Shown piece by piece: positions 4,793-64,000 of a stretch of 64,000 nt of DNA. Both the position numbers and the translations under genes were made by a program. How positions within the stretch are numbered: the stretch's first letter is position 1; each line of letters starts with the position of its first letter. The notes under the pieces are model-generated. The model had not been told where the DNA came from. It searched no databases and saw nothing but the letters and a program-made list of their open reading frames with translations. Origin of the DNA: a virus (lineage: Duplodnaviria; Caudoviricetes); the IMG/VR virus record IMGVR_UViG_2806310702_000003, positions 25,379 to 89,378 of that record, one strand, 5' to 3'.

Positions 4793-5716
4793 ATGGGAAT
4801 TGAAAAAGAAATACAAATTATAGGATTGGACATAGGAAGAGGATATGTCAAGGGGTATTCTGAAATAAACGAAATGAAGAAAGAAGTACTTTTTAAATCT
4901 ATAATAAGTGAAGGAAGATCACTTAATTTTGATGAATTTGAAAATCCAATATATGTAGAAGCAGTTGGAGAAAAATATTTTGCAGGATTATTAGCTGAAA
5001 AGGAAGGGTATACACCTATTAGAAATAGTAAAGACAGCAAAGTATCTGATACAGTTGAAAAACTTGTTTACGCTGCATTAAATTCATTAGCAGTTAAAGA
5101 AAAAGTAAGTATAATGTTTGGTGTTCCTTATAAGCTTTTTAAAAAAAGTACATTAGAAGAAGTTGTATCAAAATATTCTAATAAAAATATTAAAATAAAA
5201 GATAATATAACTGGAGCATATAAAAATATAACAATATGTAATGTAAGTATATTTAGAGAAGCTGATGCAGCAGCTATGTGGGAAGTTAGAAATAACATGG
5301 AAAATGCTAAACCTATTGGAATTGCAAATATAGGATTTAGAACAACAGAACTAAGTTATTTTGACAAAGGATTGAGGTTTAACGATAAATATTCTAAGAC
5401 AATAGAACTGGGAAATAGAACTGCTTTAAAGATGATACAAGACCACCTCGAAAGTAATAATATAATGAAAGAATTACAAGAAATAGATAGTTCTGATGAT
5501 TATGAAAATTTGAAAAGAAAAGCTTATAAAGTACTATCTGAAAGAGTTAGCCAAGATATTGAAGATAACTGGATTAACTTAGACGAAATGGAGATATTAA
5601 TAGCAGGTGGAACTGCTAAACACATGAAATTTGATGAAGGATTTAGAATAATAGATGAACCTCAAATGGCAACTGCTAAAGGGTTGTACTTAGTAGGTAC
5701 TAGAGTTTTTAAATAG
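4793..5716 (+). CDS. parM: ParM/StbA actin-like partition ATPase
   Basis: GLDIGRGYVK, NIGFRTT and LIAGGTA actin-fold motifs. Confidence 0.88.
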   Translation: MGIEKEIQIIGLDIGRGYVKGYSEINEMKKEVLFKSIISEGRSLNFDEFENPIYVEAVGEKYFAGLLAEKEGYTPIRNSKDSKVSDTVEKLVYAALNSLAVKEKVSIMFGVPYKLFKKSTLEEVVSKYSNKNIKIKDNITGAYKNITICNVSIFREADAAAMWEVRNNMENAKPIGIANIGFRTTELSYFDKGLRFNDKYSKTIELGNRTALKMIQDHLESNNIMKELQEIDSSDDYENLKRKAYKVLSERVSQDIEDNWINLDEMEILIAGGTAKHMKFDEGFRIIDEPQMATAKGLYLVGTRVFK

Positions 5717-9650: not shown

Positions 9651-9893
9651 ATATTTTAATACCTCCTTACATCTTATTTAATACTAATGTATACAAAAAG
9701 GGTTCAAATTGTTACTAATTTCATTGACAAATTAAATAAAAATATTTAATATTTATATATAATTAACTATGTGGTATGTAAATTATGTTTATTATTATAT
9801 TTACAATGAACTTTTATATTAACTATGTGAGAAGTTATTTTCTATAAAAAAAACAAGGATACCTAAAATATAGTATCCTTAAAAATTATTATT

Positions 9894-11042
9894 TTAAATA
9901 AGTTTTATATAATCTGCGCTTACATATCCTCCGTGTGATCCATAATAAATTTCATACCAATTTCCAACCTTTTTAAAAATCTTAACAGTATCATTTTTAT
10001 TTAAAATTCCTAAAATATTATTATTAGTTGTAGTGTCCATAGCACTTCTTATTCTTACTCCGTTTCCTGTGCAAGAACCTATGCGGCTATCTAAAGAACC
10101 ACTAGAGTTATTGCTAGTTGTTGTAGCTTTACCATTTTTGAAATTATTTAATGGGAAATACTTCCCTGGGCAATTAGAACTTCCAACCTCTCTATGTCCA
10201 TATATACCCATGTTTCCATATTTATTTTTGAGATAAGATATTAATTGTAATCCAGCATTAAATTGTGTATCAGGCATGCTTTTATCCGTATTATGATAAT
10301 CACCCTCGAATGCAATACCAATAGAATTTTTATTAAATCCCTTGCAGTGTGAACCTAGTGTCCACTCTGGTCTACCTCTATAAATAGAACCGTCTTTCCT
10401 AATATAAAAATGATAGCCTATACCTACCCAGCCATTTCCTAAATGTAATTGATGTAGCCTTTCTATGTTCCAGCCAGTACATTCAGTATGATGTAGTACA
10501 ATATTTCTCGGACTATTATTGTTAGGTAATCCATTTCTAAAATTTAAATTTGTATCTATAATATTCATAAAATTACTTCCCTTCATATCATATTGATTTA
10601 AATTATAATAGTTTATTAATTTTAAAATCTTATCTATATAATTAGGATCACTTGTATATCCTCCATTAAAAATTGCTTGTATTTGCTCCTTATAGTCTTT
10701 AGCCGTAAAAACACTTGCTTCTACATACCATTTCTTTTTCAAAAACAAAGCATGATCAAGTATACTTTCTGACCAACTATTATAAATCCTAAAAGGTTGT
10801 TTAACAGTAATTATTCCACTGCGTGTGTATTCTCTAGTATCTATATTAGCAATAGGTCCACTCCAATCTCTTAACGCTTTAATTCCAAAAAGGTTATTAT
10901 ATTTTTTAGCTAAGACACTTGAACCCCAGCCACTCTCTAATATTGCTTGTGCTATAGATACACTAGCAAATATTTTATATTTAATTTGTGTATCTATAGC
11001 ACTATCTTTTATTTTATTTATAAATTCTAGCTGTTCACACAT
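9894..11042 (-). CDS. Endolysin: GH73 glucosaminidase + Amidase_2 + SH3b
   Basis: AQAILESGWG, NNLFGIK, GYTSDPNY; IVLHHT, GIGYHFYI, SNCPG; C-terminal WYEIYYG SH3. Confidence 0.9.
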   Translation of the reverse strand: MCEQLEFINKIKDSAIDTQIKYKIFASVSIAQAILESGWGSSVLAKKYNNLFGIKALRDWSGPIANIDTREYTRSGIITVKQPFRIYNSWSESILDHALFLKKKWYVEASVFTAKDYKEQIQAIFNGGYTSDPNYIDKILKLINYYNLNQYDMKGSNFMNIIDTNLNFRNGLPNNNSPRNIVLHHTECTGWNIERLHQLHLGNGWVGIGYHFYIRKDGSIYRGRPEWTLGSHCKGFNKNSIGIAFEGDYHNTDKSMPDTQFNAGLQLISYLKNKYGNMGIYGHREVGSSNCPGKYFPLNNFKNGKATTTSNNSSGSLDSRIGSCTGNGVRIRSAMDTTTNNNILGILNKNDTVKIFKKVGNWYEIYYGSHGGYVSADYIKLI

Positions 11043-11059
11043 ACATTACTCCTTTGAAT

Positions 11060-11317
11060 TTATTTTTTATTTGTACTTTGTTTTACAAGTTGATTAGCAT
11101 AAACAGTTACACCTGTTACTAAAACACCTTGAATAATAGCACTTGCATTAAAGCCCATCAATGCAGTAGCCCCAATAACCCCAAATATAAGAAGCAGCCA
11201 TGGTATTACCCAATCTTTAATTTTTTCTGTTGATTTAAGCATTATACCTAGTATGTATAAAACAGGTATTAGTATAAAAGATTGTTGTACTATGTAATTC
11301 ATAATATTTACTTCCAA
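11060..11317 (-). CDS. Holin
   Basis: Hydrophobic; ILIPVLYILG...IQGVLVTGVTVYANQLVKQ; adjacent to endolysin. Confidence 0.85.
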   Translation of the reverse strand: MEVNIMNYIVQQSFILIPVLYILGIMLKSTEKIKDWVIPWLLLIFGVIGATALMGFNASAIIQGVLVTGVTVYANQLVKQSTNKK

Positions 11318-25066: not shown

Positions 25067-25570
25067 TTACTGCAATTCTATTTCTTCTATTGTATCTACT
25101 TGTGTTTCTACAATATCTCCAACTCTTAATCTTATATCGAACCCCCATTTATACACATAACCTGTTTCTAAAATAGAAGTTTTATCAACTAATTTCGTAC
25201 AATCTAATAGTATTATATCACATTTGTACGAAATTAGTTGTTTTTGAGTTTGTAAAAAAGACATAGTGTTTGTAGCAAATATCATAGCTTCTTCTTGTTT
25301 ATCTGAATAAAAAGTTAAGGAGAAAGTCATTTGAGGTTCTGTAAATCTAGTTATCTTTACACCATTTTTAGTAGAAGTTTCTATAATAGTGCCTTCAAAA
25401 GTATCATTGTCTTGTATATATCCTACAAGAACATTAGTTATGCAATAAGGATAAGACGGTAAATTATGAATACTATTTCCTTTTATAAATTTATAATTTT
25501 TATTTATTTCTTTCATGTTTTTATTAAGGTATGCATTTATCTCAGTCCATACTTCAAATAAATTAACCAT
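25067..25570 (-). CDS. Neck/tail terminator protein
   Basis: PSYPY and GFDIRLR motifs, position. Confidence 0.65.
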   Translation of the reverse strand: MVNLFEVWTEINAYLNKNMKEINKNYKFIKGNSIHNLPSYPYCITNVLVGYIQDNDTFEGTIIETSTKNGVKITRFTEPQMTFSLTFYSDKQEEAMIFATNTMSFLQTQKQLISYKCDIILLDCTKLVDKTSILETGYVYKWGFDIRLRVGDIVETQVDTIEEIELQ

Positions 25571-28426: not shown

Positions 28427-29223
28427 CTTTATTTTTGCGAAACTAATCTAATTCATTTCTTACAATTTCTTTTACTATTTTTAATAGAAATTGATTAGTT
28501 TTTTCATTTGGTTTTTGTGTTTTATATTTTTCTTCATGTTCTTTAGCAATACTTAACATATATTCCGCCATGCTTTCAAAATCTGATTTAGAATATACTC
28601 CATTTTTTATATTTAACAGCCATTTTCTATTACATTCATCTTTTTCATACCATATTGCTTTTTTAAAATCTGTAAAATTATTATTAGCAAATCTTATTAA
28701 AAAATCTAATATCCTTATACTATGCATAGCTTGTTTGGTATCATATCCATATTTATTAACTAAATGTTGTGTTCCCTGTGTCCCTTTATCTACTTGCTTC
28801 TTTTTATTAATGTGCATACCAATACAAGCATTATATAAATAAGGTAGATTCATTTTTACAATTTCATTTCTCATATTATAAATTTCAGTTATTAAAAACT
28901 TTGTTTTTATATCAATATTGTCAGGTATTAAAAATTTTTTACTAAACAATACTTCGAGAAAATTTACATTAGACTTCCACCACAAACTTGATATTTTCCT
29001 TATATCATGTACATCATAATCCTCTGTTTCTCCTATATAGGATTTACTAAATTGATTATTGAAATATAAATCATTAAATGTTGGAGCTACAAATAATTTA
29101 TAATCCTTATCACTTGTCTCTGTATTAAGATTATAATTATGAGAACCTACTAAAACCCTAAATAATTCTTTTCTTCCTTCAAAATCCATTTTGCCTTCTC
29201 TCCTTCACAATCTACTATTTTTT
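28427..29223 (-). mobile_element. Putative gene cassette carrying a nucleotidyltransferase
   Basis: Same conserved ends as the MTase cassette, at 29202-29223 and 28427-28441. Confidence 0.65.
28443..29189 (-). CDS. Pol-beta superfamily nucleotidyltransferase (RlaP/YcgL-like)
   Basis: GSHNYNLNTETSDKD (GS...DxD); KYGYDTKQAMH. Confidence 0.75.
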   Translation of the reverse strand: MDFEGRKELFRVLVGSHNYNLNTETSDKDYKLFVAPTFNDLYFNNQFSKSYIGETEDYDVHDIRKISSLWWKSNVNFLEVLFSKKFLIPDNIDIKTKFLITEIYNMRNEIVKMNLPYLYNACIGMHINKKKQVDKGTQGTQHLVNKYGYDTKQAMHSIRILDFLIRFANNNFTDFKKAIWYEKDECNRKWLLNIKNGVYSKSDFESMAEYMLSIAKEHEEKYKTQKPNEKTNQFLLKIVKEIVRNELD

Positions 29224-29239: not shown

Positions 29240-30490
29240 TTAAAATATTGATTTAATTTCTTGCAATTCTTTAATGAATAAATCTAATTTAGATTTTTCT
29301 ATAGCAATAGCACCTATTTTTTTTACATTTTTATCTTCTATACAAATAACTTCATCATCTTTTATATACTTCATTAATCCTTCTACTGTTGTAGGTTTAA
29401 GAAGTGGTTTCTGTTCTTCAATATCTTTTTCTAATGTTTTATGTACATATTCTGTTACTTCTTTACAATTTATATTATCAGTGTTAATTACTTTATTTTC
29501 ATTTTTTTTAGGTTCTTGAGCATATATTTTAGTTCCTTTTGGAATTTCTATTTCTTCTATTTCTTTTGGTTTAAATGATATATTTTTTTTATTATAATAA
29601 CTTCTATACGTTGTTACAGTAGACATTGTTATTCCTAATGTCTTTACTACTTCTGTGTTTGTAAGTCCTTTCTTAAATAGTTCAAAAGCTTTTTCTTTCT
29701 TTGACATTTCTCCTTCTCTCCTTCTATATCTTTTATTTTCTTTATATTCTTTTACACTTAGTATTTCTCTAAGTTTATTAAGTGCTTTCTTTTCTTGTCT
29801 TGAAACATGTACTTGAGTAATCCCAAGCAATTTGGCTGTTTCTACTTGTGTCTTATCTTTAAAATATCTTAATTCAATAATTGCTCTAAGTTGAGGGTTT
29901 AGTTGTTTTATAGCTTCTTGTACTAGGATATTATTCAATACAGTATCTTCTTTAAATACATTTCCTTCAATATTATCAGCTAATGTTATAAAAGTAGAGC
30001 CATCACTATGTATGATTTTTTCTATACTCTGTACTAAGTTAGTATTTGATAATTTCAAGCCTTCTTGAACTTCTTCTACTGTAAACCCTGTTTCCTTTAC
30101 TATTTCTTCTATAGTTGGACTTCTATTAAATTTTCTTTCCAATAAATATTCTATATATTTAATTTTATTTCTTATATCTAAAAGTGGTCTTGGAATTTTT
30201 ATAGGGTTTGTATCTCTTAAAAATCTTTGTACTTCTCCCATAATCATAGGAACTGCATAACTCGAAAATTTAACATCGTATTCTTTAGGATTGAAATTCT
30301 TAATTGCTTTAACAAGTCCAATATTGCCCATTTGTATTATATCCTCAGCTTCATGTTCTTTATTAAAGAACTTTTTACATGTACTTATCACTAACGGCTT
30401 ATTAAGTTCAAAACTTAATTCAAATGCATTCTTATCACCTTTTTGAGCTTTTTCAATTAATGCATTATTATCATTATATGTTAATTCCAT
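29240..30490 (-). CDS. SigF/SigG-like sigma factor with long C-terminal extension
   Basis: AQKGDKNA, GNIGLVKAIKNF, KFSSYAVPMIMGEVQRFLRD, RYFKDKTQVETAKLLGITQVHVSRQEKK. Confidence 0.88.
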   Translation of the reverse strand: MELTYNDNNALIEKAQKGDKNAFELSFELNKPLVISTCKKFFNKEHEAEDIIQMGNIGLVKAIKNFNPKEYDVKFSSYAVPMIMGEVQRFLRDTNPIKIPRPLLDIRNKIKYIEYLLERKFNRSPTIEEIVKETGFTVEEVQEGLKLSNTNLVQSIEKIIHSDGSTFITLADNIEGNVFKEDTVLNNILVQEAIKQLNPQLRAIIELRYFKDKTQVETAKLLGITQVHVSRQEKKALNKLREILSVKEYKENKRYRRREGEMSKKEKAFELFKKGLTNTEVVKTLGITMSTVTTYRSYYNKKNISFKPKEIEEIEIPKGTKIYAQEPKKNENKVINTDNINCKEVTEYVHKTLEKDIEEQKPLLKPTTVEGLMKYIKDDEVICIEDKNVKKIGAIAIEKSKLDLFIKELQEIKSIF

Positions 30491-36193: not shown

Positions 36194-37465
36194 TTAATAA
36201 AGAAAATCCAGGCTTTTTTCTTCTCCCTCAGACGTTATATTTTTCCCAACAACTTCTTTTTCTTCTCCAAATTCAACTAAATTCATTGGCAACATTATTT
36301 TATCACCATTTTTTATAGGTTCTAGTCCTACTTTTTCTCTTTTCTCATTAATAGTCATAAATGTACTGTTATTAACCCTATCAAACATTTCTTTTATATC
36401 TTCTTGCAAACAGGGAATATGACTATAATCTATTTCTAAATACTCATTTTCTTGTAATTCTAAAAAGTTTTGAAGATGCTGTGCAAGGTCTTGCATTAAA
36501 GGTATAACAGTTTTAGTGTAAAGTCCTTTTTCAGCTTCATTTTTGTTATTATAAGAAGATTGTTCGTTAAATCCTATAACTATAGGATCAACCCCCATGC
36601 CTATGCATATATCCAACATAGTATTTCTTTTACCCTCGTTCCAATCCATGTCTTTAGGATTAACACCTGTTGAAATATAAGACATTCCACCCTCTAATAA
36701 CATAAATTTACCAACGTTTCTACTACCTTGGTGACTATTTCTTAATTCTGTTTTAGTTCTTTCATACTCTGCATCTCCTAACGTATCTGGAGTAGTAAAA
36801 ACACCACTTAAATTACCACCATTTTGGAGAAGAGATACGTTCCAATTGACTAATTCGTTAAGTAAATCTCCATTTTTTAGCACGGGCTCCAGCATACTCA
36901 TACCATGGCCTAAACCGTCCAGGTAATCTGTTGGATTAAATTCTTTCCACAACATAAAATCTTTTGCTTCTATAGGAATTTCATTATATTTTATTTCTAT
37001 ATAAGGCTTTTCAGTATCTCCTGTAGGCGTAAATTTGACCATGTCCGGTCTATATACATATAATTCTTTTACTTTTCCACTTGCTTTAACTCTATGAAAT
37101 GGTACTTCTCCACCTATATATTTATAAGCTATTGCTCTTTTAATTAATTCAGAACGACTATATAAGGGATTGGGTTTTTCTAATACACTTAATGCTGGAT
37201 GTCCTTTTATTTCTTCTTTTTCGCCATTCTGGTTAACTTTAACGACTTTAAAATGTAATTGTATTGCTCCTTTTATAATCTCTTGCATACATCTAAATAT
37301 AATCCAGTTACGTCTATATCCCTCTGTTGCTATTGCTTTGTAATTTACATCTGTATAAACTGCCGACTTTCCCATTTGTTGCACTATCTTAGAATATATT
37401 GTCTTATCTTTACTTGCTTTAAGTTCAAATATGTTTTTTAATCTCATGTTATCACTTCCTTTCAA
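36194..37465 (-). CDS. Portal protein (HK97-like)
   Basis: HPALSVLEKPNP, NGGNLSGV, LLEGG, MTINEKRE. Confidence 0.92.
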   Translation of the reverse strand: MKGSDNMRLKNIFELKASKDKTIYSKIVQQMGKSAVYTDVNYKAIATEGYRRNWIIFRCMQEIIKGAIQLHFKVVKVNQNGEKEEIKGHPALSVLEKPNPLYSRSELIKRAIAYKYIGGEVPFHRVKASGKVKELYVYRPDMVKFTPTGDTEKPYIEIKYNEIPIEAKDFMLWKEFNPTDYLDGLGHGMSMLEPVLKNGDLLNELVNWNVSLLQNGGNLSGVFTTPDTLGDAEYERTKTELRNSHQGSRNVGKFMLLEGGMSYISTGVNPKDMDWNEGKRNTMLDICIGMGVDPIVIGFNEQSSYNNKNEAEKGLYTKTVIPLMQDLAQHLQNFLELQENEYLEIDYSHIPCLQEDIKEMFDRVNNSTFMTINEKREKVGLEPIKNGDKIMLPMNLVEFGEEKEVVGKNITSEGEEKSLDFLY

Positions 37466-37703
37466 TTATAATTATTTTTCCATTGTCATACTTAACATTA
37501 TAGAAAGGTATTTTTTCTCCTTCTTGTATATTTTTAAATTCTTTACATAAACATTTGTATGTTAATATTCCATTTCCCATATCTTTCACATCTAAAATAA
37601 TCAATTCCCTATAAATTTTTAATAATTCTTTTGAATTATTTCGGATTAAATCTTTAGTTATTTGTATAAAGCCGACTTGATTCATACCTATATATGCTTT
37701 CAT
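37452..37703 (-). CDS. Hypothetical protein
   Basis: ORF with RBS; FKNIQEGEKIPFY. Confidence 0.55.
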   Translation of the reverse strand: MKAYIGMNQVGFIQITKDLIRNNSKELLKIYRELIILDVKDMGNGILTYKCLCKEFKNIQEGEKIPFYNVKYDNGKIIIIERK

Positions 37704-37897
37704 TCTTCCATTACTCCCTTTTTAATTTTTTCAGCTAATAATAAAGGAATCCAGAACATTCCATAGTATATTCCTAATACTAATCCCATTATTATTTTTC
37801 CAGACAAGTGTTTTAATAAACTGTAACTTATCTTAATTCCTAAGAATACACCTGTCATTATGTATATATATAATAAAAATGCTAGTAAATATTTCAT
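37700..37897 (-). CDS. Small membrane protein
   Basis: Two hydrophobic helices, RBS GAGGTG. Confidence 0.55.
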   Translation of the reverse strand: MKYLLAFLLYIYIMTGVFLGIKISYSLLKHLSGKIIMGLVLGIYYGMFWIPLLLAEKIKKGVMEE

Positions 37898-38054
37898 TAT
37901 TTATCACCTCAATATTATTATACTGTTTTCGGCGTAACCTCGCTTAAATCAACACTTTATAAAAATGTTTAAGACATAAGAATTGTTATGTCTTGTATAT
38001 GGAGATGGTAAGGGCTGAAAGTGGCTATTCTCAACGCTTTACGGTTTAAATATA

Positions 38055-38087
38055 AAAAAATAAAGCAGTGTGGTAACTGCTTTATTG
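38055..38087 (-). terminator. Intrinsic terminator closing the non-coding unit
   Basis: AATAAAGCAGT-loop-ACTGCTTTATT followed by T-run on the minus strand. Confidence 0.75.
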
Positions 38088-38224
38088 ATAGATTATTTAA
38101 TTATGGAATAATATCTTACGATCTAAATCGTATATGAATGGAAAGTACAATATGTTGTAAGGTTAGGAGGATACACCTCCTTTATAATTTTATTTTTTAA
38201 ACTAGATTAGTAACAATATTATTG

Positions 38225-38460
38225 ATTCACTGCTTAAAGCAAAGTTGCGACCTTACACTTTAAGTCTTACCGTAAAGAGCAATAATGGTAGATAATCAAC
38301 AATAAATCTGGTCACTGTTAACGTACAGTTAAACGTTTCTTTATACTCGAAAGACCAGTGCTTATTTCGAGTTATGTTATACGGGTATCTACACCCCAAG
38401 CTTACCGACCAATTTGGTAGCATTTATAGCGTTAAGCTAACGGTCATTATTTTTTTAGTA
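38225..38460 (-). ncRNA. Structured RNA domain with several predicted pseudoknots
   Basis: GC-richer, ORF-free; closing helix 38281-87/38445-51, helix 38288-94/38386-92, hairpin 38346-71 whose loop matches 38308-13. Confidence 0.55.
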
Positions 38461-38487
38461 TTGTCCCACACGTGAACAATATAATTG

Positions 38488-38547
38488 TTATTGCATACTG
38501 GCTTCGAACCAGTAACCCGCGCGTTTCTTCCTTGAGTTAATGCAATA
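38488..38547 (-). ncRNA. tRNA-like element lacking the anticodon arm
   Basis: Acceptor ATTGCAT/ATGCAAT, T-arm ACTGG-TTCGAAG-CCAGT, D-like TAACTCAAGGAAGA. Confidence 0.7.
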
Positions 38548-38620
38548 TTTACGTAAAATATAAGTTGGCGTAAATTTATATTTTACAACTTTTGTTGTTG
38601 TCAATTTTGTCTTATTTTTT

Positions 38621-38672
38621 AGGGAATAGAAGGAATTGAACCTCCTCACTTATAAGTGTAACCATATTTCCC
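38621..38672 (-). ncRNA. tRNA-like minihelix
   Basis: GGGAAATA/TATTCCC stem, T-arm GGAGG-TTCAATT-CCTTC, short CACTTATAAGTG hairpin. Confidence 0.65.
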
Positions 38673-38728
38673 ATATTAAAATAAGCAGTTTATACACTTG
38701 CTTAGGTGTTAAATTCTAAAGAAAGAAA

Positions 38729-38777
38729 GGTGGAACTTGAAGGAATTGAACCTTCTACCATGCCTACCAAAGTTCCA
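38729..38777 (-). ncRNA. tRNA-like minihelix
   Basis: Perfect GGAACTT/AAGTTCC acceptor, T-arm GAAGG-TTCAATT-CCTTC, 14-nt linker, 3' ACC. Confidence 0.7.
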
Positions 38778-38874
38778 TATAGTTGTTTTTTAGTTTTACA
38801 TGAAGAACAACTAAACTTCATAATCTAATTGAAATATATTATTTAAAGGGGATATTATGTATCTCACAATTATT

Positions 38875-38902
38875 ATTATACTCTTATTTTGAATTTTGTC
38901 AA
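38875..38902 (-). promoter_or_regulatory. Consensus SigA promoter
   Basis: TTGACA-16 nt-TATAAT on the minus strand. Confidence 0.8.
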
Positions 38903-38960
38903 CACTAATTTCGCACAAAAGAATTAAATTATATATATATTGTACTAAATCAGTTGTTTT

Positions 38961-40205
38961 CTAACATCTAGTAATACGTATTCTTCTTTCATTTTGTAGT
39001 GCTTCCATAGCGTATCTAAAAGCATCTAGTAAATGATTATAATCATCTATGGGTTTATTAAGTTGTTTACCTTCTTTATTACTATCCCAAACATAATTAT
39101 ATAACTCCACTTGAGTATTTTGACATTTAGGATGTATATATATTTTATATTGTAATATGTGTTGAATGCCATTAATTATACTGTCTTTACCTTTTCTAGC
39201 TTCTTTAATTCTGCTTATGCCTGCTCTGCGAATTTCTTCTATACTTTTAGGCTCTGCACTATCTGCAATTATGCTTTCCTTAGCAAATCCTTTATATTTA
39301 ATCATATCTGCTATTTGATTATTCAACATTCCCTTTTCATAATGCTCATCATAGATATATATTTCCTTATTTTCTTTATCTACTAATAAACAAATAAACG
39401 CAGTTGGGTCTGCTTTATAACCAAAATCTAATCCATTAGTAGGAATAACTCCAGGTCTTTTAGCAATTTCCCTGTAATCGAACTCCTTCTCCACCCAGTT
39501 ATCATATATAACGCCTTCTGCTATTCCCCATTCCCCTAAACCTTCTATAGCATATCTTCTAGGAGAAGTTTTTTTCATTTTCTCAAATATTTTTATATCA
39601 TCTTTTCCTAAAAATTCATTGCATTTGTAGTTGGTGGTCATAGCAAGTATATCATCGTCTTTAACATCAAAGAAACGTTTCTTTAACCAATGTTTTTCAT
39701 TCCAGGGGTTAAATGATAAAGTTATTTGTTTAAATAACCCTGGTGGCAACTCACCTCTTATAGACATATCAACCTTATTAAAATCATCTTCATTTGTAAC
39801 TTGATACGCTTCCTCAAACCAGCAAAAACATAGATAGCCAACCTCAACAGTTATAGAAGTAATAGACATAGGATCATCTAATCCTCTAAATAATATCTTC
39901 TGGCCAGTAGGTTTATAAATAATTTCCATAGGTGACTTTTTACATTGCCATAAATGTGATACTTTAAGCTGATGTATTGCCCATTTTAATTGTGCGTATG
40001 TACTATCCTTGTGAGTATTAAATACTTTCCTTATAACCAAAGTATTAGTTTCAGGGTATTTCATCATCCTATAAATTATATTTAAGGCGGTAGTTGTGGA
40101 CTTCTTGCTCCCTCTACCGCCTTTTACTACTCTATATCTGCCTTTGTAGTGCCAAAATTCAGAATATCCGCCACCAATTATTTTACTTAACTTTACAATT
40201 GCCAT
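38961..40205 (-). CDS. terL: Terminase large subunit (PBSX family)
   Basis: VKGGRGSKKS, WFEEA, SFNP, GLDFG, NHLLDAFRYA. Confidence 0.95.
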   Translation of the reverse strand: MAIVKLSKIIGGGYSEFWHYKGRYRVVKGGRGSKKSTTTALNIIYRMMKYPETNTLVIRKVFNTHKDSTYAQLKWAIHQLKVSHLWQCKKSPMEIIYKPTGQKILFRGLDDPMSITSITVEVGYLCFCWFEEAYQVTNEDDFNKVDMSIRGELPPGLFKQITLSFNPWNEKHWLKKRFFDVKDDDILAMTTNYKCNEFLGKDDIKIFEKMKKTSPRRYAIEGLGEWGIAEGVIYDNWVEKEFDYREIAKRPGVIPTNGLDFGYKADPTAFICLLVDKENKEIYIYDEHYEKGMLNNQIADMIKYKGFAKESIIADSAEPKSIEEIRRAGISRIKEARKGKDSIINGIQHILQYKIYIHPKCQNTQVELYNYVWDSNKEGKQLNKPIDDYNHLLDAFRYAMEALQNERRIRITRC

Positions 40206-40615
40206 TATTCTCTTTCCTCTTCCTCTAGATCATCTACAAATTGTATTGTTTCGTTTATATCTGCTTTTACCTCTTGCTTATCTACAAATAACCTATATCT
40301 TTTCCCTAGTAACTCTGCTGCTTTTGTCCTATCTTGTAAAGATGCATCTAATCCCAGTTGATCCTTTTCTTCTCCACGCATTACTTTAGTTAGATATTGT
40401 AATACCTCCTCTGCATCAGCTATCCTTTTATCCTCTAATTGCTTCATTCTTTTCTCGACGTATTGCTTTATATCTAGTTTTGTCAAGTTTTCGCTTGCTA
40501 TCTTATTCAAATTTTTGCCTTTATATCCCGCCATCTTTGCTGCTTCTGTAGCATTCCCTGTTTGTATATAATAATCACAAAATGCCTTTTGCTTAGGAGT
40601 TAATTTATTATCCAT
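40205..40615 (-). CDS. terS: Terminase small subunit
   Basis: LTPKQKAFCDYYIQTGNATEAAKMAGY, KAAELLGKRY. Confidence 0.93.
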   Translation of the reverse strand: MDNKLTPKQKAFCDYYIQTGNATEAAKMAGYKGKNLNKIASENLTKLDIKQYVEKRMKQLEDKRIADAEEVLQYLTKVMRGEEKDQLGLDASLQDRTKAAELLGKRYRLFVDKQEVKADINETIQFVDDLEEEERE

Positions 40616-47554: not shown

Positions 47555-48057
47555 CTTTATTTTTGCGAATTAAATTTCATGAAAACTAACCAATGCGTCT
47601 TTGCTCTTTTATTTCCCAATAAAGGTTTATGATCTATAACCTTTAAAATTTCTTTTAGCTTTATTTGTTCCTCATTCCACTTAAAAATTAATACTCCATA
47701 GTTGTCTAAAACTCTCATGCATTCTTCAAACCCTTTTTTAATATCTATTGGCCAATCATTATTTAACTTTCCATATTTCTTGGCCAACCAAGAATTTTCT
47801 CCAACTTTAATTAAATGTGGTGGATCAAAAACTACTAGCTTGAAAGTATTATCTTTATATGGAATATGTCTAAAATCTCCTACCACATCTGGTTTAATTA
47901 TTAATTTTCTTCCGTCACATAATGTATCTTCCAATTCTCTATTATCCATAAAAATTGCATCTTTATTTTCTTTATCAAACCAAAACATTCTGCTTCCACA
48001 ACATACATCTAATATAGGCTTTTCCAAACTCTCACCCCTTCACAATCTACTATTTTT
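47555..48057. repeat. 503-bp direct repeat, copy 2
   Basis: Matches 1029-1531, offset 46,526 bp. Confidence 0.93.
47557..48027 (-). CDS. SAM-dependent methyltransferase, copy 2
   Basis: Translation identical to 1031-1501. Confidence 0.8.
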   Translation of the reverse strand: MEKPILDVCCGSRMFWFDKENKDAIFMDNRELEDTLCDGRKLIIKPDVVGDFRHIPYKDNTFKLVVFDPPHLIKVGENSWLAKKYGKLNNDWPIDIKKGFEECMRVLDNYGVLIFKWNEEQIKLKEILKVIDHKPLLGNKRAKTHWLVFMKFNSQK

Positions 48058-54811: not shown

Positions 54812-57136
54812 TTAATGTATTGAAGGTGGTAGTTGAGTTATAAATTTTGACCAACCATCTTCATACTTTATTAAATTTAAACTGTTATATCTTTTAAGAT
54901 TTAATAGATCTTCTAATTGATATGGATATAATTCTTCTTTAAGTTCGTTGTAGTTATCTTTATCACATCCAGATATAAGCATATAGGAACTGTTAGCTGC
55001 TTTAAGCTCATTTCTTATGTTTTTTATTTGACCCAAATAATGGCATGATATTATAGGTTTACATGAAAACTTTGCTATTTGACTTAATTTGCTTCTTAAA
55101 AAATTTTGACAATTAGGAACTTGATATAATTCATCAAACACTATATTAACTTTAATTCTATCGTTAGAATTGGGTATATTCCATTTTCTAACTTGTAAAG
55201 TTCCCCAGATTTTAGTTAACCAGTAAGTACAATATATATCTTTTTCCTGTTCAGTTGAAAACATTATTTCAGGCATACGAATACAAATTAATTGTGATTT
55301 TTGTATTTCATCTACTAAATTAATATTATTTTCGCAATCCTTTTTAAGCATAAGTTCCATATAGGTATTTTGTTTTAATTTAACAAATCTATTTAATATA
55401 CCTTGAATATAACTAATCTTAGTTCCAGTAATTTCCCTTGGACAGTCTTTTGTAGGTTTAGACCACTCATCTAGTTCTTTCAATGCTCTTATATATTCTT
55501 CTAAATTGTTTTCTTGATCTTTTGGAATATTATCTATAAAATTATGTCTTATTATATGATCTTGTAATACATCAAATACATTTTTAATGCTTCCATTTGA
55601 TATAAATACAACTAAAGCAGCAGCTTCTAAATACCTTTCCATTCTTGCTTTAAGATCTTCATTATCACTTAGTGCATTAATAAGTGTCATAAGTTGTACT
55701 GTTTTAGCTTTAGCACATCTATATATTTCAAATACATTTTTATTTAAAGGAGTTATTTCGTTATATCCTAAACCTTGTAGATTATCAAAATTACTGCAAT
55801 CTATATTTAAAACTTTATTTTTTTTTATAGATTTTGATACGTCATTAGATAAATCACAGTTACCACAAAAATCAAACAGTATAGTACATTCCCCTGCATT
55901 AATACTATCTTTAGATAAATTAGATATAAGAGTAGTTTTACCTGATCTAGTTGGCCCTATTAAACATAATGTTAAATTTTTAAATTCTTTATCATTAGAT
56001 AAATATGCTTTTTTCTTATTTCCTTTATATTCACTCACCCCTATACACATAGTACCTTGTTCTAATTCTTTAGGTATAGGACTTTCTAATACATCTATTT
56101 TAGAAATACATTTATGCTCATCTAATAATTCTCTTCCTGGAAGTTGTAAAAAATTTTGACATTCTTCAATACTTGTTTTATTTATAGCTGCATCAGATAA
56201 TTTAAAATTAGTATAATTAATATTAGTTTTAAACTTTTTATATGTTAATTCATTATCATCACTTATACTTTTAAAAGCTTCTGTTATGGCTAGTGCATTA
56301 TTATATTTTCTATTAATATCAGGACTATCGCTTTGAATAACTATTTGTGTATTTATAATATTAGTATCTTTTTTCTTTTGTGTGGACTTAGATATTTCTC
56401 TTTTATCATTTATTATTAGACTATTTAATATGTTTTCTATTAAATTTACTTTATCTTCTTTTTTGGTATTAAAAAGTTCTTCAAAACCTTCAGCAAATCC
56501 TTGTATTATCTCTAGTATTGTGGTTAATATAAGTTTTAATATATATAAAGGAGATACTATTTCATTTAAAACAGATTCACCATTTTTTATTTTTTGAATA
56601 GTGTGTTTATATCTTTTAGTCCAATTTTTTTCACTAGTTGGCATGAAATTATATAGAATACCAACCCTATCATCTGTATTTATTATATTTAAAGTATTAA
56701 GGATACTATTAAGAGGTTCATTAGATTTTTTATCTAGTTTTAAAGATAATGCATCTTCATATTTGTAATAAAGATAGTATCTCAAAGCATCTTTTGAAAA
56801 GTTGGGTATAGTATCTACTGTTTCAATTGTTATCTTAGACCATGTTTCTGTTAATTTTTCTTTAAATAATGATTGATATGCATCTGGAACAATAAAGTAA
56901 AAATCAACCTTATTTTTCATAATATCTATATAAAAGCTGCACTTTAAAGGTGCTTCTATATTCCATGTTTTTTTATCTTTACGTATTCTATTTTTCATAT
57001 CTTTATATAGTGAGTTAATTGTATTTGCAATATTGCTAGAATTGTAATTTCTTATAGATGTATCTGGAATTAATTTTAAGATTATATAAGTTGGATGAAT
57101 TATTTTAAAATATTGACTTAGTTTAATAGTTTTCAT
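54812..57136 (-). CDS. VirB4/TraG-like P-loop ATPase, copy 2
   Basis: Walker A GPTRSGKT, Walker B VFDE; shares EDLLNLKRYxSLNLIK with copy 1. Confidence 0.75.
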   Translation of the reverse strand: MKTIKLSQYFKIIHPTYIILKLIPDTSIRNYNSSNIANTINSLYKDMKNRIRKDKKTWNIEAPLKCSFYIDIMKNKVDFYFIVPDAYQSLFKEKLTETWSKITIETVDTIPNFSKDALRYYLYYKYEDALSLKLDKKSNEPLNSILNTLNIINTDDRVGILYNFMPTSEKNWTKRYKHTIQKIKNGESVLNEIVSPLYILKLILTTILEIIQGFAEGFEELFNTKKEDKVNLIENILNSLIINDKREISKSTQKKKDTNIINTQIVIQSDSPDINRKYNNALAITEAFKSISDDNELTYKKFKTNINYTNFKLSDAAINKTSIEECQNFLQLPGRELLDEHKCISKIDVLESPIPKELEQGTMCIGVSEYKGNKKKAYLSNDKEFKNLTLCLIGPTRSGKTTLISNLSKDSINAGECTILFDFCGNCDLSNDVSKSIKKNKVLNIDCSNFDNLQGLGYNEITPLNKNVFEIYRCAKAKTVQLMTLINALSDNEDLKARMERYLEAAALVVFISNGSIKNVFDVLQDHIIRHNFIDNIPKDQENNLEEYIRALKELDEWSKPTKDCPREITGTKISYIQGILNRFVKLKQNTYMELMLKKDCENNINLVDEIQKSQLICIRMPEIMFSTEQEKDIYCTYWLTKIWGTLQVRKWNIPNSNDRIKVNIVFDELYQVPNCQNFLRSKLSQIAKFSCKPIISCHYLGQIKNIRNELKAANSSYMLISGCDKDNYNELKEELYPYQLEDLLNLKRYNSLNLIKYEDGWSKFITQLPPSIH

Positions 57137-58468: not shown

Positions 58469-58771
58469 TTATCTATTTAAACTATTTAGTACACCTTTTA
58501 TTGCTTTTTTCTTTTTCTTTGTAGTTTCAGTTTTTTCTACTTTAATAGGAGCATTAAAATTCATTTCTCCTAAAACTTCTTTAACTACATCTTTTATCAT
58601 ATTTTTATTTGATAAAAATTCAGATTCTTTCATGTCTTTTCTTATAAGGTCTTTAATGTAAGTTGCAAAAGGTTTGTCTTGATTTTCAGCCCATTCTAAT
58701 AATTGTTTTTCATTATCACTAAATGGTACTGGTTTACTTTTTCTTTTATTCATCATCCTCACCAAATTCAT
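58469..58771 (-). CDS. ParR-like RHH adaptor
   Basis: PVPFSDNEKQLLEWA...FATYIKDLIRKDM, after parM. Confidence 0.7.
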   Translation of the reverse strand: MNLVRMMNKRKSKPVPFSDNEKQLLEWAENQDKPFATYIKDLIRKDMKESEFLSNKNMIKDVVKEVLGEMNFNAPIKVEKTETTKKKKKAIKGVLNSLNR

Positions 58772-59645
58772 TATCAGCTACAGTTTGATATACTTTTTGA
58801 TTAATAGATTGACTTTCTGGAACTAGTTCTATTACTGGGAAGTGTTTTTTCCAGTAATTAATAGTATCAGCACCACCTCCACCGATTAAATAGATTTTAC
58901 TAGCATTTTTAACTTTAAAATCATTTTTAATAAATGATGCTATTTCAGTTATATGATTTTCAACAATTGGTCTTATATCAGTTATATCAGTTTCAACATT
59001 ATTTATAATTGCTGTCTTCTTGTTTAGTAATTTTTCAATATCAGTTGGTTTATAATCAGAACCTTTATTAAGATTTAAGTAACTAGATATGTCAGCATAC
59101 ATTTTATACATACTTTCATTATAAGTTGCAGAATTAAGAATGCTTAGTTCTTCCCACTGCGTTACATTTATTGTACCGGCACCATTATCAATTACAATTA
59201 CATTAGATTCATCTTCGGTTAAAATAGGATACGCAGCTTCTATAAAAACTATACAATCAGTTATTCTTATAGTGTATTCTTTATCATTAACAGTTATTTG
59301 TTGTTGTCCATAACCAATTATGTGTTTTTTTAGTTTATCACCTATTAGTTTATATTTCTTTTCTGGAACACCTACTACTACATTAGCATCTATAAAATCC
59401 TCATTGTTTTCACTAAGTGCAATTGAAGTTAAAAGGCACACTTTATAATATTCACTAAAATATCTTTCATCTCCAGTAAAAGGAGCCCCTTGTCCTATAA
59501 TATAATTTATATCATTATATTTAACATAATGTACTTCTTTTTTATGCTTGCCAAATCCAACCCTTTCACCTATTTTTACTCTACTTGCAAACTTGCCAAC
59601 CGGAAGTTTAGTATAACCATTTCCAACATCTATACCTATATTCAT
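58746..59645 (-). CDS. parM: ParM/StbA actin-like ATPase
   Basis: GIDVGNGYTK, IDNGAGTIN, LIGGGA. Confidence 0.88.
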   Translation of the reverse strand: MNIGIDVGNGYTKLPVGKFASRVKIGERVGFGKHKKEVHYVKYNDINYIIGQGAPFTGDERYFSEYYKVCLLTSIALSENNEDFIDANVVVGVPEKKYKLIGDKLKKHIIGYGQQQITVNDKEYTIRITDCIVFIEAAYPILTEDESNVIVIDNGAGTINVTQWEELSILNSATYNESMYKMYADISSYLNLNKGSDYKPTDIEKLLNKKTAIINNVETDITDIRPIVENHITEIASFIKNDFKVKNASKIYLIGGGGADTINYWKKHFPVIELVPESQSINQKVYQTVADNEFGEDDE

Positions 59646-60637: not shown

Positions 60638-61873
60638 TTATCTTAAACAAGTAGCTTTCTTAGGTATCCATGCCTTTATACCTTCTATGTCTAATAAATA
60701 AAATTCTAATTTTTCATCTATAGCGGTTACTAATTGATCTCTATAGAAATATTTAGCTATATTCATGAATTCATCTCTTATAAATACAGCAGCTGTATCA
60801 TATTGCATTTTAAGTAGCAATGGTTTAAATTCTTTAACTTGTGCTTGTATACTAGAAATGCTGTGTCCTAAAATACCCTCTGCTATAGCCTTCCCTATTT
60901 TGTCGTAACCAATATTTTTATAAATTTCAATGTCCTTTGTAGCTTCTACGAAACATACTTCTACAATAATGGCACTCATGGACGTATGTTTTATCTCAAA
61001 CAAACCTCTTGTAATTCCATCTTTAACACCTCTGTTTTTAAATCCTAAGTTAGCAATATTATTCGTAATTGTTTGAGCTATATCCTTGCCAGTCGTATTG
61101 TTCGTGTTTGTCCAGGTTTCCGTGCCTAGTGCTCCATTATAACTATTATAAGCATTGTTAAAATGTATGGATACAAATAAATCAGCCCCCCAATTATTAG
61201 CCTTTGATACTCCATAATTCAAATCTGAATTACTATCCATATCTCCTGGAGTAACATCTATAACATTTTTTCCTGCTGCTTTTAAATATTTAATTACGGC
61301 ATCTTTTACTTTTCTATCTTCTATTGTTTCGCTAATAATTCCATTTGCTCCTAAGGCTTTAAAATTATGTCCTCCACGTACTGCTATATTATCTATTCTC
61401 ATGTTATTACTTCCTCTCACATCAAATTTGTTTAAATGATATTTGTCTATTAAATCTAAAATCTTATTAACATAGTTAGGATCTGTTGTATATCCTCCAT
61501 TAAAAAGCGCTTTTATTTGCTCAAAATAATTTGTAGCTTTAAATACTCCAGCTGATATATACCATTCAGCTTTTAAAAATTTAGCGTGGTCTAGTATGCT
61601 TTCTGTCCAGGAGGAATATATTCGGAAAGGTTGTTTAACAGTAATTATTCCATTTTCTGTCCATTCTTTAGTATATATATTGGCAACAGGTCCATCCCAA
61701 TCCCTAAGCGCTTTAATTCCAAAAAGATTGTTATAATTCTTTGCTAAACTGCTTTCTCCCCACCCGCTCTCCAGGATAGCTTGTGCAATAGTTACACTAG
61801 CAAAAATCTTATATTCTTTTTGAGTTTCTATTGCTGCATCTTTGATTTTATTAATAAATTCTATTTGGTCCAC
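60638..61873 (-). CDS. Endolysin: GH73 glucosaminidase + Amidase_3
   Basis: AQAILESGWG; VRGGH, FVSIHFN, IIVEVCFV. Confidence 0.9.
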   Translation of the reverse strand: MDQIEFINKIKDAAIETQKEYKIFASVTIAQAILESGWGESSLAKNYNNLFGIKALRDWDGPVANIYTKEWTENGIITVKQPFRIYSSWTESILDHAKFLKAEWYISAGVFKATNYFEQIKALFNGGYTTDPNYVNKILDLIDKYHLNKFDVRGSNNMRIDNIAVRGGHNFKALGANGIISETIEDRKVKDAVIKYLKAAGKNVIDVTPGDMDSNSDLNYGVSKANNWGADLFVSIHFNNAYNSYNGALGTETWTNTNNTTGKDIAQTITNNIANLGFKNRGVKDGITRGLFEIKHTSMSAIIVEVCFVEATKDIEIYKNIGYDKIGKAIAEGILGHSISSIQAQVKEFKPLLLKMQYDTAAVFIRDEFMNIAKYFYRDQLVTAIDEKLEFYLLDIEGIKAWIPKKATCLR

Positions 61874-62125
61874 TTAATCCTTCCCCTTCTTAGATTGCTT
61901 ATATAATTGATTGCTTCCTATTGCACAAAATGAGCATATAATACCTTCCAGTATACTTGTAGCATTTAAACCATCTACAATAAGACTAAATGCTATTCCA
62001 ACAACTAAAAGTATCCAGGGGATTATATTATCTTTAACTTTAGAGTTTTTTAAAAATATACCTATAACATAAAGAGCAGCCACTAATATAAGCAACTGCT
62101 CTGGAATAAATTTAATTAAATCCAT
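61874..62125 (-). CDS. Holin
   Basis: ILVAALYVIG...IPWILL...NQLYKQ. Confidence 0.85.
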   Translation of the reverse strand: MDLIKFIPEQLLILVAALYVIGIFLKNSKVKDNIIPWILLVVGIAFSLIVDGLNATSILEGIICSFCAIGSNQLYKQSKKGKD

Positions 62126-62384: not shown

Positions 62385-63404
62385 TTAAGATAATTTTTTA
62401 TACTCTTGTTTTAATGTACTATTGTCTAGTTCTGCATAAATCATAGTTGTGTCTACACTAGTATGGCCCATAAGCTTTTGAATAACTGTAATAGGCATGT
62501 TATTGTTAAGCGCTAATGTTGCAAATGTATGTCTTAGCAAATGTGGATAGACAGATTTATTTAGACCTGCTCTAGTTGCTATTTTATTAATTTCTAATTG
62601 TATAGATCTTCCCCCAAGCTGTTTATGTGGTTTTCTGGTGGTAACAAATAAATATGGACAGTTATCATTTCTATTATTTAAATATTTTTCTAAAAAAATT
62701 TTTGCTTTAACAGTAAAATAAACTGTTCTTTGTTTATTTCCTTTTCCAATTACATTTAGATTAAGTTCATTCCAATTAATATCTCTAATTTTAATGTTTT
62801 TTACTTCTGATAATCTACAACCAGTTGCAAATATAAATTCTAGTAGTGCTTTTTCTCTAAGACTTTTGCATGCATTACGTAGTAACTCTAATTCTTCTAG
62901 TGTTAGAGAATTTCTTAGACGTTTTCCAACCTTAGGACTTTTAATTTTTTTAGTCGGATTTTTAATAATTAACTCTTCATCTTCTAACCATGCGAAAAAG
63001 CTTTTTAAGATAGCTATTTTATTCGCTAAAGTACTTTCTTTTTTATCTTTACAAATATAAGATAAGTATATTCTTATATCCATTGTAGTTACAGTATTTA
63101 CAGGTTTTATAATTGTTTGTGCAAATCTTTCAATTTCTCTTTTATAGTTTTTTAGTGTAAGTATACTTAATCCATCTAGCTTTTTTATAGCTAGATACAT
63201 CTTCAATTTATCTGTAATATCGCTTGCTACTATACTTGTTTCTTTTGGAATAACATCATAATCATATAGAACTTCTTCAATTATATTTCTAATCATAATT
63301 TGTTTTTGAAGGTCCATATCTAACTCAGGAAATTTTACAGTAAGTTTTCCTAATATTTTTATTACAGCTTCTTCATTATTATTTTTTTTAGTTTCTTCAA
63401 ACAT
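62385..63404 (-). CDS. XerD-like tyrosine recombinase
   Basis: ATGCRLSE, GKGNKQR, HLLRHTFAT, LMGH, TTMIY catalytic residues. Confidence 0.93.
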   Translation of the reverse strand: MFEETKKNNNEEAVIKILGKLTVKFPELDMDLQKQIMIRNIIEEVLYDYDVIPKETSIVASDITDKLKMYLAIKKLDGLSILTLKNYKREIERFAQTIIKPVNTVTTMDIRIYLSYICKDKKESTLANKIAILKSFFAWLEDEELIIKNPTKKIKSPKVGKRLRNSLTLEELELLRNACKSLREKALLEFIFATGCRLSEVKNIKIRDINWNELNLNVIGKGNKQRTVYFTVKAKIFLEKYLNNRNDNCPYLFVTTRKPHKQLGGRSIQLEINKIATRAGLNKSVYPHLLRHTFATLALNNNMPITVIQKLMGHTSVDTTMIYAELDNSTLKQEYKKLS

Positions 63405-63678
63405 TTTAATTTCCCCCTTGCCCACTACAAAAATAAAAATCCCTTGCAGCAGGCAAGGGATTTATTTACCCTTGCCTGGGTTTTGATTTAGTTACTCTAT
63501 AAGAGCATTAATTTATTTTTATAATTAATTATTATAGCTTGTTTTCTATAAAAAGATTAAAAATTAAAAATTTTATATAAAATTAATAATTAAATAAAAA
63601 AAGCAATAAAAAAAGACTTCTTAAAAGTCTAGATTTATTGCTTAATTATTTTATTGTTTACTTCGCATAATTTTTCTA

Positions 63679-63873: not shown

Positions 63874-64000
63874 CCGTTGCCAAAAATCTATAAATATCTA
63901 TAAACCTTGTTTAATTCCCTGTTCCACCTGTTCCATTTTGCCGAGGCTACTTTGGTTTGTATAACAGTCCAAGGGCTTAAATTCCCATACAACGAATGGT

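Follow-up and report, generated by a model that had tools for sequence, protein, structure and literature searches.

An array of anticodon-less mini-tRNAs and a small pseudoknot in a non-coding cassette of a Clostridium-type phage

Between the terL and portal genes of a Clostridium-type phage lies a cassette that raises the question of what tRNA-like elements without an anticodon arm could be for. We analysed 64,000 nt (positions 25,379 to 89,378, hereafter the window) of the 89,378-bp IMG/VR virus record IMGVR_UViG_2806310702_000003, in which three such elements, termed m1, m2 and m3, follow one another on the minus strand; coordinates are window positions, with the strand in brackets. The initial annotation of this DNA, made from the sequence alone, had described the region as a non-coding transcription unit carrying anticodon-less mini-transfer RNAs (mini-tRNAs), and had proposed that these serve either as decoys or as RNase P/Z punctuation marks cutting the transcript into small RNAs. 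We find that the array is real and not a product of chance, that it derives from tRNA genes, and that it accompanies an RNA pseudoknot present in phages of several bacterial phyla. Punctuation is the reading that we tentatively prefer.

The mini-tRNA array and its transcription frame

All three elements fit into 290 nt of one strand, downstream of a promoter, and each has the 7-bp acceptor stem, 5-bp T stem and UUCRANN loop of a tRNA as well as a D-loop-like GG. Mini-tRNA m1 (38731..38776, -) consists of the acceptor GGAACTT/AAGTTCC, a 14-nt connector (TGGTAGGCATGGTA), the T-arm GAAGG-TTCAATT-CCTTC and a discriminator A followed by CC. In m2 (38621..38672, -), the acceptor GGGAA(A)TA/TATTCCC, with one bulge or mismatch, is joined by the hairpin CACU-UAUA-AGUG to the T-arm GGAGG-TTCAATT-CCTTC, and the minimum free energy fold contains exactly these parts: acceptor, hairpin and T-arm. 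The third element, m3 (38489..38546, -), has the acceptor ATTGCAT/ATGCAAT, a 26-nt connector starting with TAACTCAAGG, a GGGTT and the T-arm ACTGG-TTCGAAG-CCAGT. Pairing is complete in m1 and m3 (7/7 and 5/5 in each), while m2 pairs at 6/7 acceptor positions (or 7 with the bulge) and 5/5 T-stem positions, including one G-U. The connectors of 14, 19-20 and 26 nt are too short to hold a D arm and an anticodon arm together, so that an anticodon arm is lacking in all three.

The Rfam tRNA model (RF00005) recovered m1 at 38731-38776(-) with 28.0 bits (E=0.0019; gathering cut-off 29) and m2 at 38621-38671(-) with 21.9 bits, the D and anticodon arms being deleted in both alignments. These were its sole matches at E<=10 in the 64-kb window and in the 89-kb record, and m3 was not reported at that threshold. 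ARAGORN called no tRNA in the window or in the whole record, as the initial annotation had expected. Its description of three elements with acceptor stem, T-arm and D-loop-like GG and without an anticodon arm is borne out by the Rfam alignments, the connector lengths and the scanner described next; its statement that no CCA is encoded has to be softened for m1, where the A-CC is a partial CCA.

Chance occurrence was assessed with a scanner of our own that searched both strands for 7/7 acceptor pairs and a 5/5 T stem closing a TTCRANN loop, with no more than 32 nt in the connector. In the 89-kb record it found m1 and m3 only, compared with a mean of 0.04 matches in 200 dinucleotide shuffles, of which one (1/200) had at least two. 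Relaxing the acceptor to 6/7 pairs added m2 and one unrelated match with a 65-nt connector (1.34 +/- 1.46 matches in 50 shuffles). Across 704 kb of other phage DNA, the strict scanner returned normal tRNAs and a single mini element. The latter (L015 1076-1116, +) is a minihelix about 2.9 kb upstream of terL in a terL relative, with the acceptor GACACAT/GTGTGTC, a 10-nt connector and the T-arm AGCGG-TTCGATT-CCGCT.

To judge from its sequence, m3 is clearly a tRNA-Asn-type gene that has lost about 15 nt from its middle. A degenerate form of its 20-nt stretch from the variable loop into the T-arm (GGGTTACTGGTTCGAAnCCA motif) was scanned over IMG/VR and met 29 loci, of which 17 are parts of tRNAs that ARAGORN recognises (11 Asn, 3 Lys, 2 Met, 1 Arg), four are Clostridium botulinum-phage copies of module X (see below) and eight were left uncalled, several of these being integration-type 3' fragments. 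The variable loop and T-arm of m3 are typical of phage tRNA-Asn genes, and past its acceptor strand m3 retains TA-ACTCA-AGG, the start of a D-arm. As for the other two, m1 and m2 share a 25-nt T-arm/acceptor repeat (84% identical), and the T-arm of m2 is identical to that of a metagenomic tRNA(UCA). Two acceptor pairs differ between m1 and m2 on both sides with pairing kept, in line with the earlier claim that the stems differ and yet remain paired, although the mismatch or bulge in the m2 acceptor limits that claim.

All three elements are thus tRNA-derived, yet they are not 3' fragments, as both acceptor strands are retained. They keep all or nearly all 12 stacked pairs despite the loss of 15-27 nt from the D/anticodon region, and the deletions are not random in outcome, all three sparing the 12-bp acceptor/T stack. 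The initial annotation had set its view against random deletion from intact tRNAs held by relatives. Part of that alternative is found in m3, a deletion derivative of tRNA-Asn type whose C. botulinum homologue is further decayed, whereas no relative with an intact tRNA at the locus was found. A scan of Joint Genome Institute metagenomes with the m1/m2 pattern returned two sequences: a normal tRNA(UCA) and, behind a small open reading frame (ORF), the 3' fragment of a tRNA. Since the C. botulinum and C. tetani records held no sub-threshold tRNA-like matches besides true tRNAs, the mini form is so far confined to the lineage of the window, perhaps with Planktothrix phage PaV-LD.

The array is framed by consensus signals, as the initial annotation had stated. 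A sigma-70-type promoter (38875..38902, -; TTGACA-16 nt-TATAAT) matches the consensus at 12/12 positions and is the sole site to do so among 24 promoter-like sites in 37500-39500 (shuffles 13.9 +/- 4.0). An intrinsic terminator (38049..38086, -) has an 11-bp stem with a 6-nt loop (hairpin 38086-38059) followed by a T run, and the two signals frame about 810 nt on the minus strand. The unit as a whole folds better than its shuffles (z=-3.6, 20 shuffles). Its 5' leader (38777..38868, -) carries an 8-bp hairpin (TAGTTGTT...AACAACTA) that ends 4 nt before m1, as well as a UCCCCUUU stretch, and shows a single difference, T>C at 38835, in one sequencing-run contig (X5).

We rejected a coding role for the cassette. 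None of the 15 ORFs of 20-56 aa that overlap 38000-38960 is preceded, by eye, by a Shine-Dalgarno sequence at working distance, the two longest ORFs of the region had no Pfam match, and the ORF overlapping module Y is not conserved, being reduced to 14 codons in phage D-1873. On the plus strand, a 10/12 promoter-like site with TG (38085-38112) and a terminator-like hairpin (38165-38181, +) could together produce a short RNA antisense to the 3' part of the cassette.

Pseudoknot Z, the other modules and the insertion

Between m1 and m2 lies a feature absent from the initial account, a 28-nt H-type pseudoknot that we call Z (38682..38709, -). It is made up of stem 1 (ACAC/GUGU), loop 1 (C), stem 2 (UAAGCA/UGCUUA), loop 2 (A) and loop 3 (AUAAAC). 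Z first matched C. tetani phages at 97%, and an exact scan with 24 nt of it found 34 IMG/VR contigs, which range in G+C from 0.26 to 0.41 and have unrelated flanks around it. Stem 2 was tested by a scan in which stem 1 and loop 3 were fixed and the six stem 2 letters left free, giving at least 118 stretches and 120 instances. Among the matches listed, 98/120 instances have a free hexamer that pairs with the six letters behind AAAC at five or all six positions, against about 3% expected at random (6 of 16 letter combinations counted as pairs); the other 22 are unrelated sequences, and the 98 represent 77 distinct contexts and 33 distinct cores.

Stem 1 varies in a compensated manner as well. 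A BLAST search of GenBank phages placed Z in Moraxella, Microcystis, Roseobacter, Planktothrix and Lentibacter phages, and in four of these five stem 1 is altered with all four pairs kept. The ACAC/GUGU of the window and most copies, retained in the Lentibacter phage, is AGAC/GUCU in Moraxella phage Mcat1, UGAC/GUCA in Microcystis phage MaMV-DC, AAAC/GUUU in Planktothrix phage PaV-LD and GCAC/GUGU in Roseobacter phage CRP-6. In an ungapped alignment of 84 rows (76 distinct, the window being row 1), 96.2% of cells are paired, a percentage inflated because 77 of the 84 rows were chosen with the fixed-stem-1 pattern and had to pass a 5/6-pair minimum. This choice leaves the number of pair types unaffected, and two-sided changes occur in 6/10 pairs. 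None of 500 shuffles reached any of the measures, and slid controls paired at 13-49%. The window copy (38709-38682) fits the motif NNAC-C-UNNNNA-A/U-GUNN-NNAAAC-UNNNNA with both stems fully paired (4/4 and 6/6). Because the two covarying stems interleave, Z is an H-type pseudoknot that acts as RNA. It occurs in more than 100 viral contigs, and the phages that carry it include those of Firmicutes, Proteobacteria and Cyanobacteria.

Z is co-oriented with the genes in 5/5 annotated phages and single-copy in 9/10 whole records searched, this record included; two IMG/VR contigs carry two copies 221 nt apart. It follows the stop codon of an ORF of at least 50 codons by 4-9 nt in 19/28 distinct contexts, 11 of the 19 belonging to one phage family. 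No Rfam 15 family matches Z in the window or in 20/20 further loci tried. We did not find its sequence in the searchable literature, nor in the portion of the supplements of PMC10690425 that was covered; that catalogue of viral candidate RNAs may list it under a number. Z thus appears to be undescribed so far.

Several other identities for Z were considered and set aside. It contains TATAAA, and some copies have TTGACA 18 nt upstream, as in a promoter; we rejected this as the main reading, and likewise a Xer/dif-like site, because the interleaved two-stem covariation requires RNA. The 4-9 nt spacing after stops would suit a stimulator of read-through or frameshifting, but recurring slippery sites are lacking and a second in-frame stop is present in another ribonucleotide reductase context. 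In Roseobacter phage CRP-6 (L281 592-642, +), the ribonucleotide reductase stop is followed by 5 nt and then Z, and the glutaredoxin start comes 16 codons later in the same frame with no intervening stop; read-through would fuse both proteins.

In topology and size, Z resembles the preQ1-I aptamer, the luteovirus frameshift knots and the T2/T4 gene 32 operator, with which it shares a one-nucleotide loop 1 over a stem 2 of 5-6 bp and an A-rich loop 3 (NNAAAC) beside stem 1. It differs from these compact knots in having no Rfam match and in not being bound to one gene family or slippery site, and with only one base in loop 2 it shows no obvious preQ1-type pocket.

In other phages, tRNAs are found next to Z. 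A canonical tRNA lies 0-9 nt from Z in 5/157 IMG/VR loci, either a tRNA-Trp ending at Z or, 5-9 nt behind it, the start of a tRNA-Asn, Asp or Glu. In Planktothrix phage PaV-LD, one or two tRNA-like elements of about 50 nt precede the single Z by 100-400 nt. The 50-nt element lies just after an ORF stop, about 400 nt upstream of Z, and folds into an acceptor, a 4-bp arm and a T-arm with a UUCGAUU loop (z=-2.8), with sub-threshold matches to mascRNA, tRNA-Sec and others; the fold of the second is ambiguous. Both elements (L282 181-230 and 472-524, +; Z at 602-629) come just after ORF stops and have in common the connector CAGGTTAGCyCCT and the trailer ATTCCCGAAA.

The cassette is a mosaic of modules that adjoin real tRNA genes in other Clostridium phages. 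An A/U-rich spacer (38547..38620, -) between m2 and m3, for which no homologue was found, holds two weak hairpins and the inverted repeat 38553-38566 / 38573-38586. Module X (38452..38531, -) covers the 3' two-thirds of m3 and a downstream hairpin and is common to the C. botulinum group III phage-plasmids, with 63/80 positions (79%) identical in D-1873 (E=3e-14). The hairpin inside it (38459..38481, -; UAUUGU-UCACGUGUGGG-ACAAUA) reads UAUUAC...GUAAUA in the botulinum-phage copies, which amounts to two compensatory pair changes. In those copies of X the 5' acceptor strand is missing, and 2-4 substitutions in the T-arm disrupt its stem.

Module Y (38380..38447, -) is a 68-nt element whose counterparts in phage and plasmid records of C. 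botulinum group III show 89-95% identity. RNAalifold on six variants gave three hairpins, with a compensatory GC to AU change in hairpin 1 and consistent changes in hairpin 2; a scan of genome contigs with a Y word gave one chance match, in an acidobacterial metagenome-assembled genome. The order of the modules is X-Y in the window and Y-X in the C. botulinum phages. On plasmid p1BKT015925 the array runs tRNA-like gene, tRNA-Trp, Z, Y and a strong hairpin, and in D-1873 the stretch beyond Y and X contains more tRNA debris and a drum RNA. The drum RNA (RF02958) lies in the non-coding island of D-1873 (L082 2544-2651, -; 47.7 bits, cut-off 43). The tRNA-like gene of the C. botulinum group III phage-plasmids (L082 4195-4284, L088 1722-1812 and L089 2739-2829, all -) scores 48-51 bits with the Rfam tRNA model and has an anticodon stem of about 10 bp and a 16-nt loop with CACCUCCCC, resembling the anti-Shine-Dalgarno end of 16S rRNA.

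The remaining 290 nt, module W (38090..38379, -), form several hairpins, including AGGAGG-UGUAU-CCUCCU, with a folding z-score of only -1.4, and no homologue was found in the phage, plasmid or IMG/VR searches (0 matches to a W word in IMG/VR). Four sequencing runs, available as assembled contigs in which RNA ends are not resolvable, also covered parts of the cassette, with no usable variation in m1-m3. Contigs of run X5 hold 38419-39050 almost unchanged, those of X4 hold Y only and those of X7 hold 38737-39050. An RNA-library contig of run X11 covers 38095-38378 of W with two differences; in it, 38662-38593 is joined to 38378-38095 through 61 other letters that replace X and Y (38379-38592).

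The cassette is a moron-type insertion of about 1.5 kb between terL and portal, since the portal gene usually follows terL directly, the two are 1495 nt apart in the window and the cassette has no match in relatives. The comparison set consisted of 80 terL relatives (57-72% identity), in which a crude script sought the next ORF of at least 300 aa after terL. Such an ORF was detected in 66 and in none of the other 14; it starts at most 32 nt from the terL stop in 46/66 and after a longer gap in 20/66. No match to the cassette was obtained by blastn against the 80 loci. All flanking genes are on the minus strand: terS (40205-40615), terL (38961-40205; Terminase_3, E=1e-62) and portal (36194-37465). 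The initial annotation had placed an ORF-poor region between terL and portal; the position is right, and the correction concerns two small ORFs between terminator and portal, one for a 65-aa two-helix membrane protein (37700-37897, -) and one at 37452-37703 (-).

Processing marks, remnants or effectors

A search of 37900-39000 with Rfam 15 at E<=10 returned the tRNA model and chance-level matches only, with no GOLLD, ROOL, YrlA or other family, in agreement with the earlier view that the unit matches no known family end to end. The cassette is not a tmRNA (transfer-messenger RNA): ARAGORN made no such call, Rfam gave nothing beyond tRNA, and the third acceptor pair is A-U, A.C/G-C and U-A in m1, m2 and m3, not G3:U70. 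Nor is it the RNA array of a type III toxin-antitoxin system or a CRISPR (clustered regularly interspaced short palindromic repeats) array; Tandem Repeats Finder returned 0 rows, and the sole notable direct repeat is the m1/m2 T-arm pair. A type I or III toxin-antitoxin locus was likewise rejected, as there are no repeats and the downstream 65-aa two-helix membrane ORF and 83-aa ORF are without a family match.

The nearest known systems are of two kinds, tRNA-like processing marks and tRNA-like domains. With tRNA operons processed by RNase P and RNase Z, the cassette shares a promoter, a run of acceptor/T-arm units with short spacers and a terminator, and in related phages canonical tRNAs are flanked by the same spacer modules, Z and Y; it differs in that its elements have no anticodon arm or full D arm, receive no ARAGORN call and score below the Rfam tRNA cut-off. 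In mascRNA/MEN-beta (RF01684) and in mitochondrial tRNA punctuation, tRNA-like structures serve only as RNase P/Z marks that define the ends of neighbouring RNAs. Those systems are eukaryotic or organellar and keep the cloverleaf, whereas here a phage has a three-element array of minihelices whose cleavage we infer. The tRNA-like domains of tmRNA and YrlA also combine an acceptor stem, a T-arm and a D-loop analogue without an anticodon arm, but the cassette has no tag reading frame, no G3:U70, no Ro-binding helix, no ARAGORN tmRNA call and no Rfam match. In the literature searched, we did not find a phage in which anticodon-less minihelices form an array with a promoter of its own.

The smallest structure on which RNase P, RNase Z and the CCA-adding enzyme act is the acceptor/T minihelix. 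The reading that we prefer, as possible rather than probable, is that RNase P and RNase Z cleave a single transcript at the mini-tRNAs and thereby release Z and other small RNAs. It starts from what is observed, namely the anatomy of the elements, their excess over chance, their tRNA ancestry, the insertion status and the fact that Z, Y and the X hairpin are conserved and covary, and it adds transcription, cleavage and an effect of the products as inferred steps. The cassette would be a tRNA-operon-derived non-coding moron, whose strong housekeeping-type promoter would give one transcript of about 810 nt. Each stump would keep what tRNA-processing enzymes read, that is, a 7-bp acceptor on a 5-bp T stem, a UUCRANN loop and the elbow GG, and, having no anticodon arm, would be unable to decode. 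Each stump would be cut 5' by host RNase P and 3' by RNase Z or exonucleases, which would yield the stumps, a piece of about 50 nt with Z, the A/U-rich spacer and a 3' piece of about 400 nt with the X hairpin, Y and W. These payload RNAs, not the stumps, would be the likely effectors.

Several observations weigh against this reading. In most phages Z is situated in ordinary mRNA just 3' of an ORF and hence needs no tRNA-type excision. The m1/m2 T-arm and acceptor pattern had 0 matches in IMG/VR and, because no m1/m2 homologues were found, the stumps offer no between-genome covariation; taken alone, each folds no better than its shuffles (z -0.9 to -1.8). The T-arm of m3 is one base off the common tRNA form, so that m3 could be no more than a recent derivative. 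Related C. botulinum phage islands frequently contain tRNA pieces in a decayed state. The sole RNA-library evidence is the one assembled contig described above, from a variant with X and Y replaced, and it proves neither transcription nor processing.

Chief among the rivals is neutral decay, in which the locus is the remnant of a phage tRNA cluster, the stumps are internal-deletion pseudogenes with no role of their own and any function rests on Z, Y or nothing; we regard this as somewhat unlikely. It accounts well for m3, a deletion derivative of tRNA-Asn type that shares its truncated 5' region with the further decayed C. botulinum homologue, and it agrees with the other tRNA fragments in related islands, the absence of conservation evidence for m1 or m2 and a W without significant structure. 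According to PMC9897764, tRNA fragments are common by-products of mobile-element integration, and like m1-m3 they derive from tRNA genes and reside in mobile elements. The fragments described there are 3' partial copies without the 5' acceptor strand, as are the integration-type fragments in our own set (L096, L101, L122), whereas m1-m3 keep both strands paired and have lost the middle. Decay would also have to leave (nearly) all 12 pairs and a canonical T loop in 3/3 elements that have all lost the anticodon region, compensate the acceptor changes between m1 and m2, and spare a 12/12 promoter and the terminator.

Two further explanations share part of this evidence. If the minihelices were themselves the effectors, they would be abundant acceptor/T-arm/elbow mimics that titrate a factor of the host or of a rival phage, such as toxins or defence enzymes modifying the tRNA 3' end, or tRNA-binding regulators. 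The half that is retained is the half such factors read, with the elbow GG in all three, a strong constitutive-type promoter suits a titrating RNA, and the moron architecture suggests prophage expression. We nevertheless consider decoys improbable: they have no positive evidence, the three differing acceptor stems argue against one specific stem binder, no G3:U70 or other recognisable identity set is present, and the 96 ORFs scanned indicate no partner, apart from a weak match to an RlaP-type nucleotidyltransferase 9 kb away. More improbable still is that the region matters only as DNA, its tRNA-like pieces being recombination scars or attachment-like sites in a hot spot of module exchange. 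The modules do occur in varying orders and contexts (X-Y here, Y-X in C. botulinum phages, X and Y replaced by 61 nt in one contig), and tRNA sequences are known recombination targets (PMC9897764). However, the integrase and the probable attP are 24 kb off (62385-63425), the interleaved covariation of the two stems of Z is readable only as an RNA pseudoknot, and a promoter and terminator frame the unit.

Of the two functions proposed initially, punctuation fits the context better than decoys, because Z, X and Y lie between or behind the minihelices and the same modules adjoin canonical tRNAs in related Clostridium phages. The anatomy reported in that annotation stands as well, while its case against random decay is weakened by m3. 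On the punctuation reading, the layout would be that of a tRNA operon with processing-competent stumps in place of tRNAs. Stumps that are cut like tRNAs would represent tRNA punctuation in a bacterial virus by elements that gave up decoding. They would mark a route from tRNA genes to RNA-processing signals, and their having escaped annotation pipelines would be accounted for.

Z is the more testable and the more general by-product of the analysis. A motif so small and so widely shared, here by phages of Clostridium, Moraxella, the Roseobacter group and cyanobacteria, usually marks an interaction with a universal partner. As phages of at least three bacterial phyla keep it in single copy, one could imagine that phages have turned tRNA genes into pure processing handles, the mini-tRNAs being nature's equivalent of the tRNA-guide arrays made by engineers and freeing small effector RNAs from a shared transcript, and that Z binds a universal host component or small ligand, for instance as an RNA-level counter-measure or sensor, an extension that we rate as unlikely.

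Other features of the record

Elsewhere in the window, a RAGATH-18 RNA (63915-63975, -; 60 bits, cut-off 44.9) lies beside the integrase gene (62385-63425). A single CRISPR-DR14-like repeat (9752-9783, -) scores 31.3 bits, below the cut-off of 45, and could be a solitary unit or a chance match. Four gene sets are duplicated (1031-1501 and 47557-48027; 9894-11317 and 60638-62125; 4793-5716 and 58746-59645; 6127-8481 and 54812-57136), comprising DNA methyltransferases with identical scores as well as endolysin/holin pairs, partition ATPases and phrog_5156 proteins, of which there are two each. The record has the appearance of a plasmid-type prophage accompanied by a related second element, or of two elements joined together. 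Finally, the head/neck module has insertions at 28443-29189 and 29240-30490 (-), which encode an RlaP-family (RNA-repair-associated) nucleotidyltransferase (24.4 bits, cut-off 23) and a full sigma-70-family factor.

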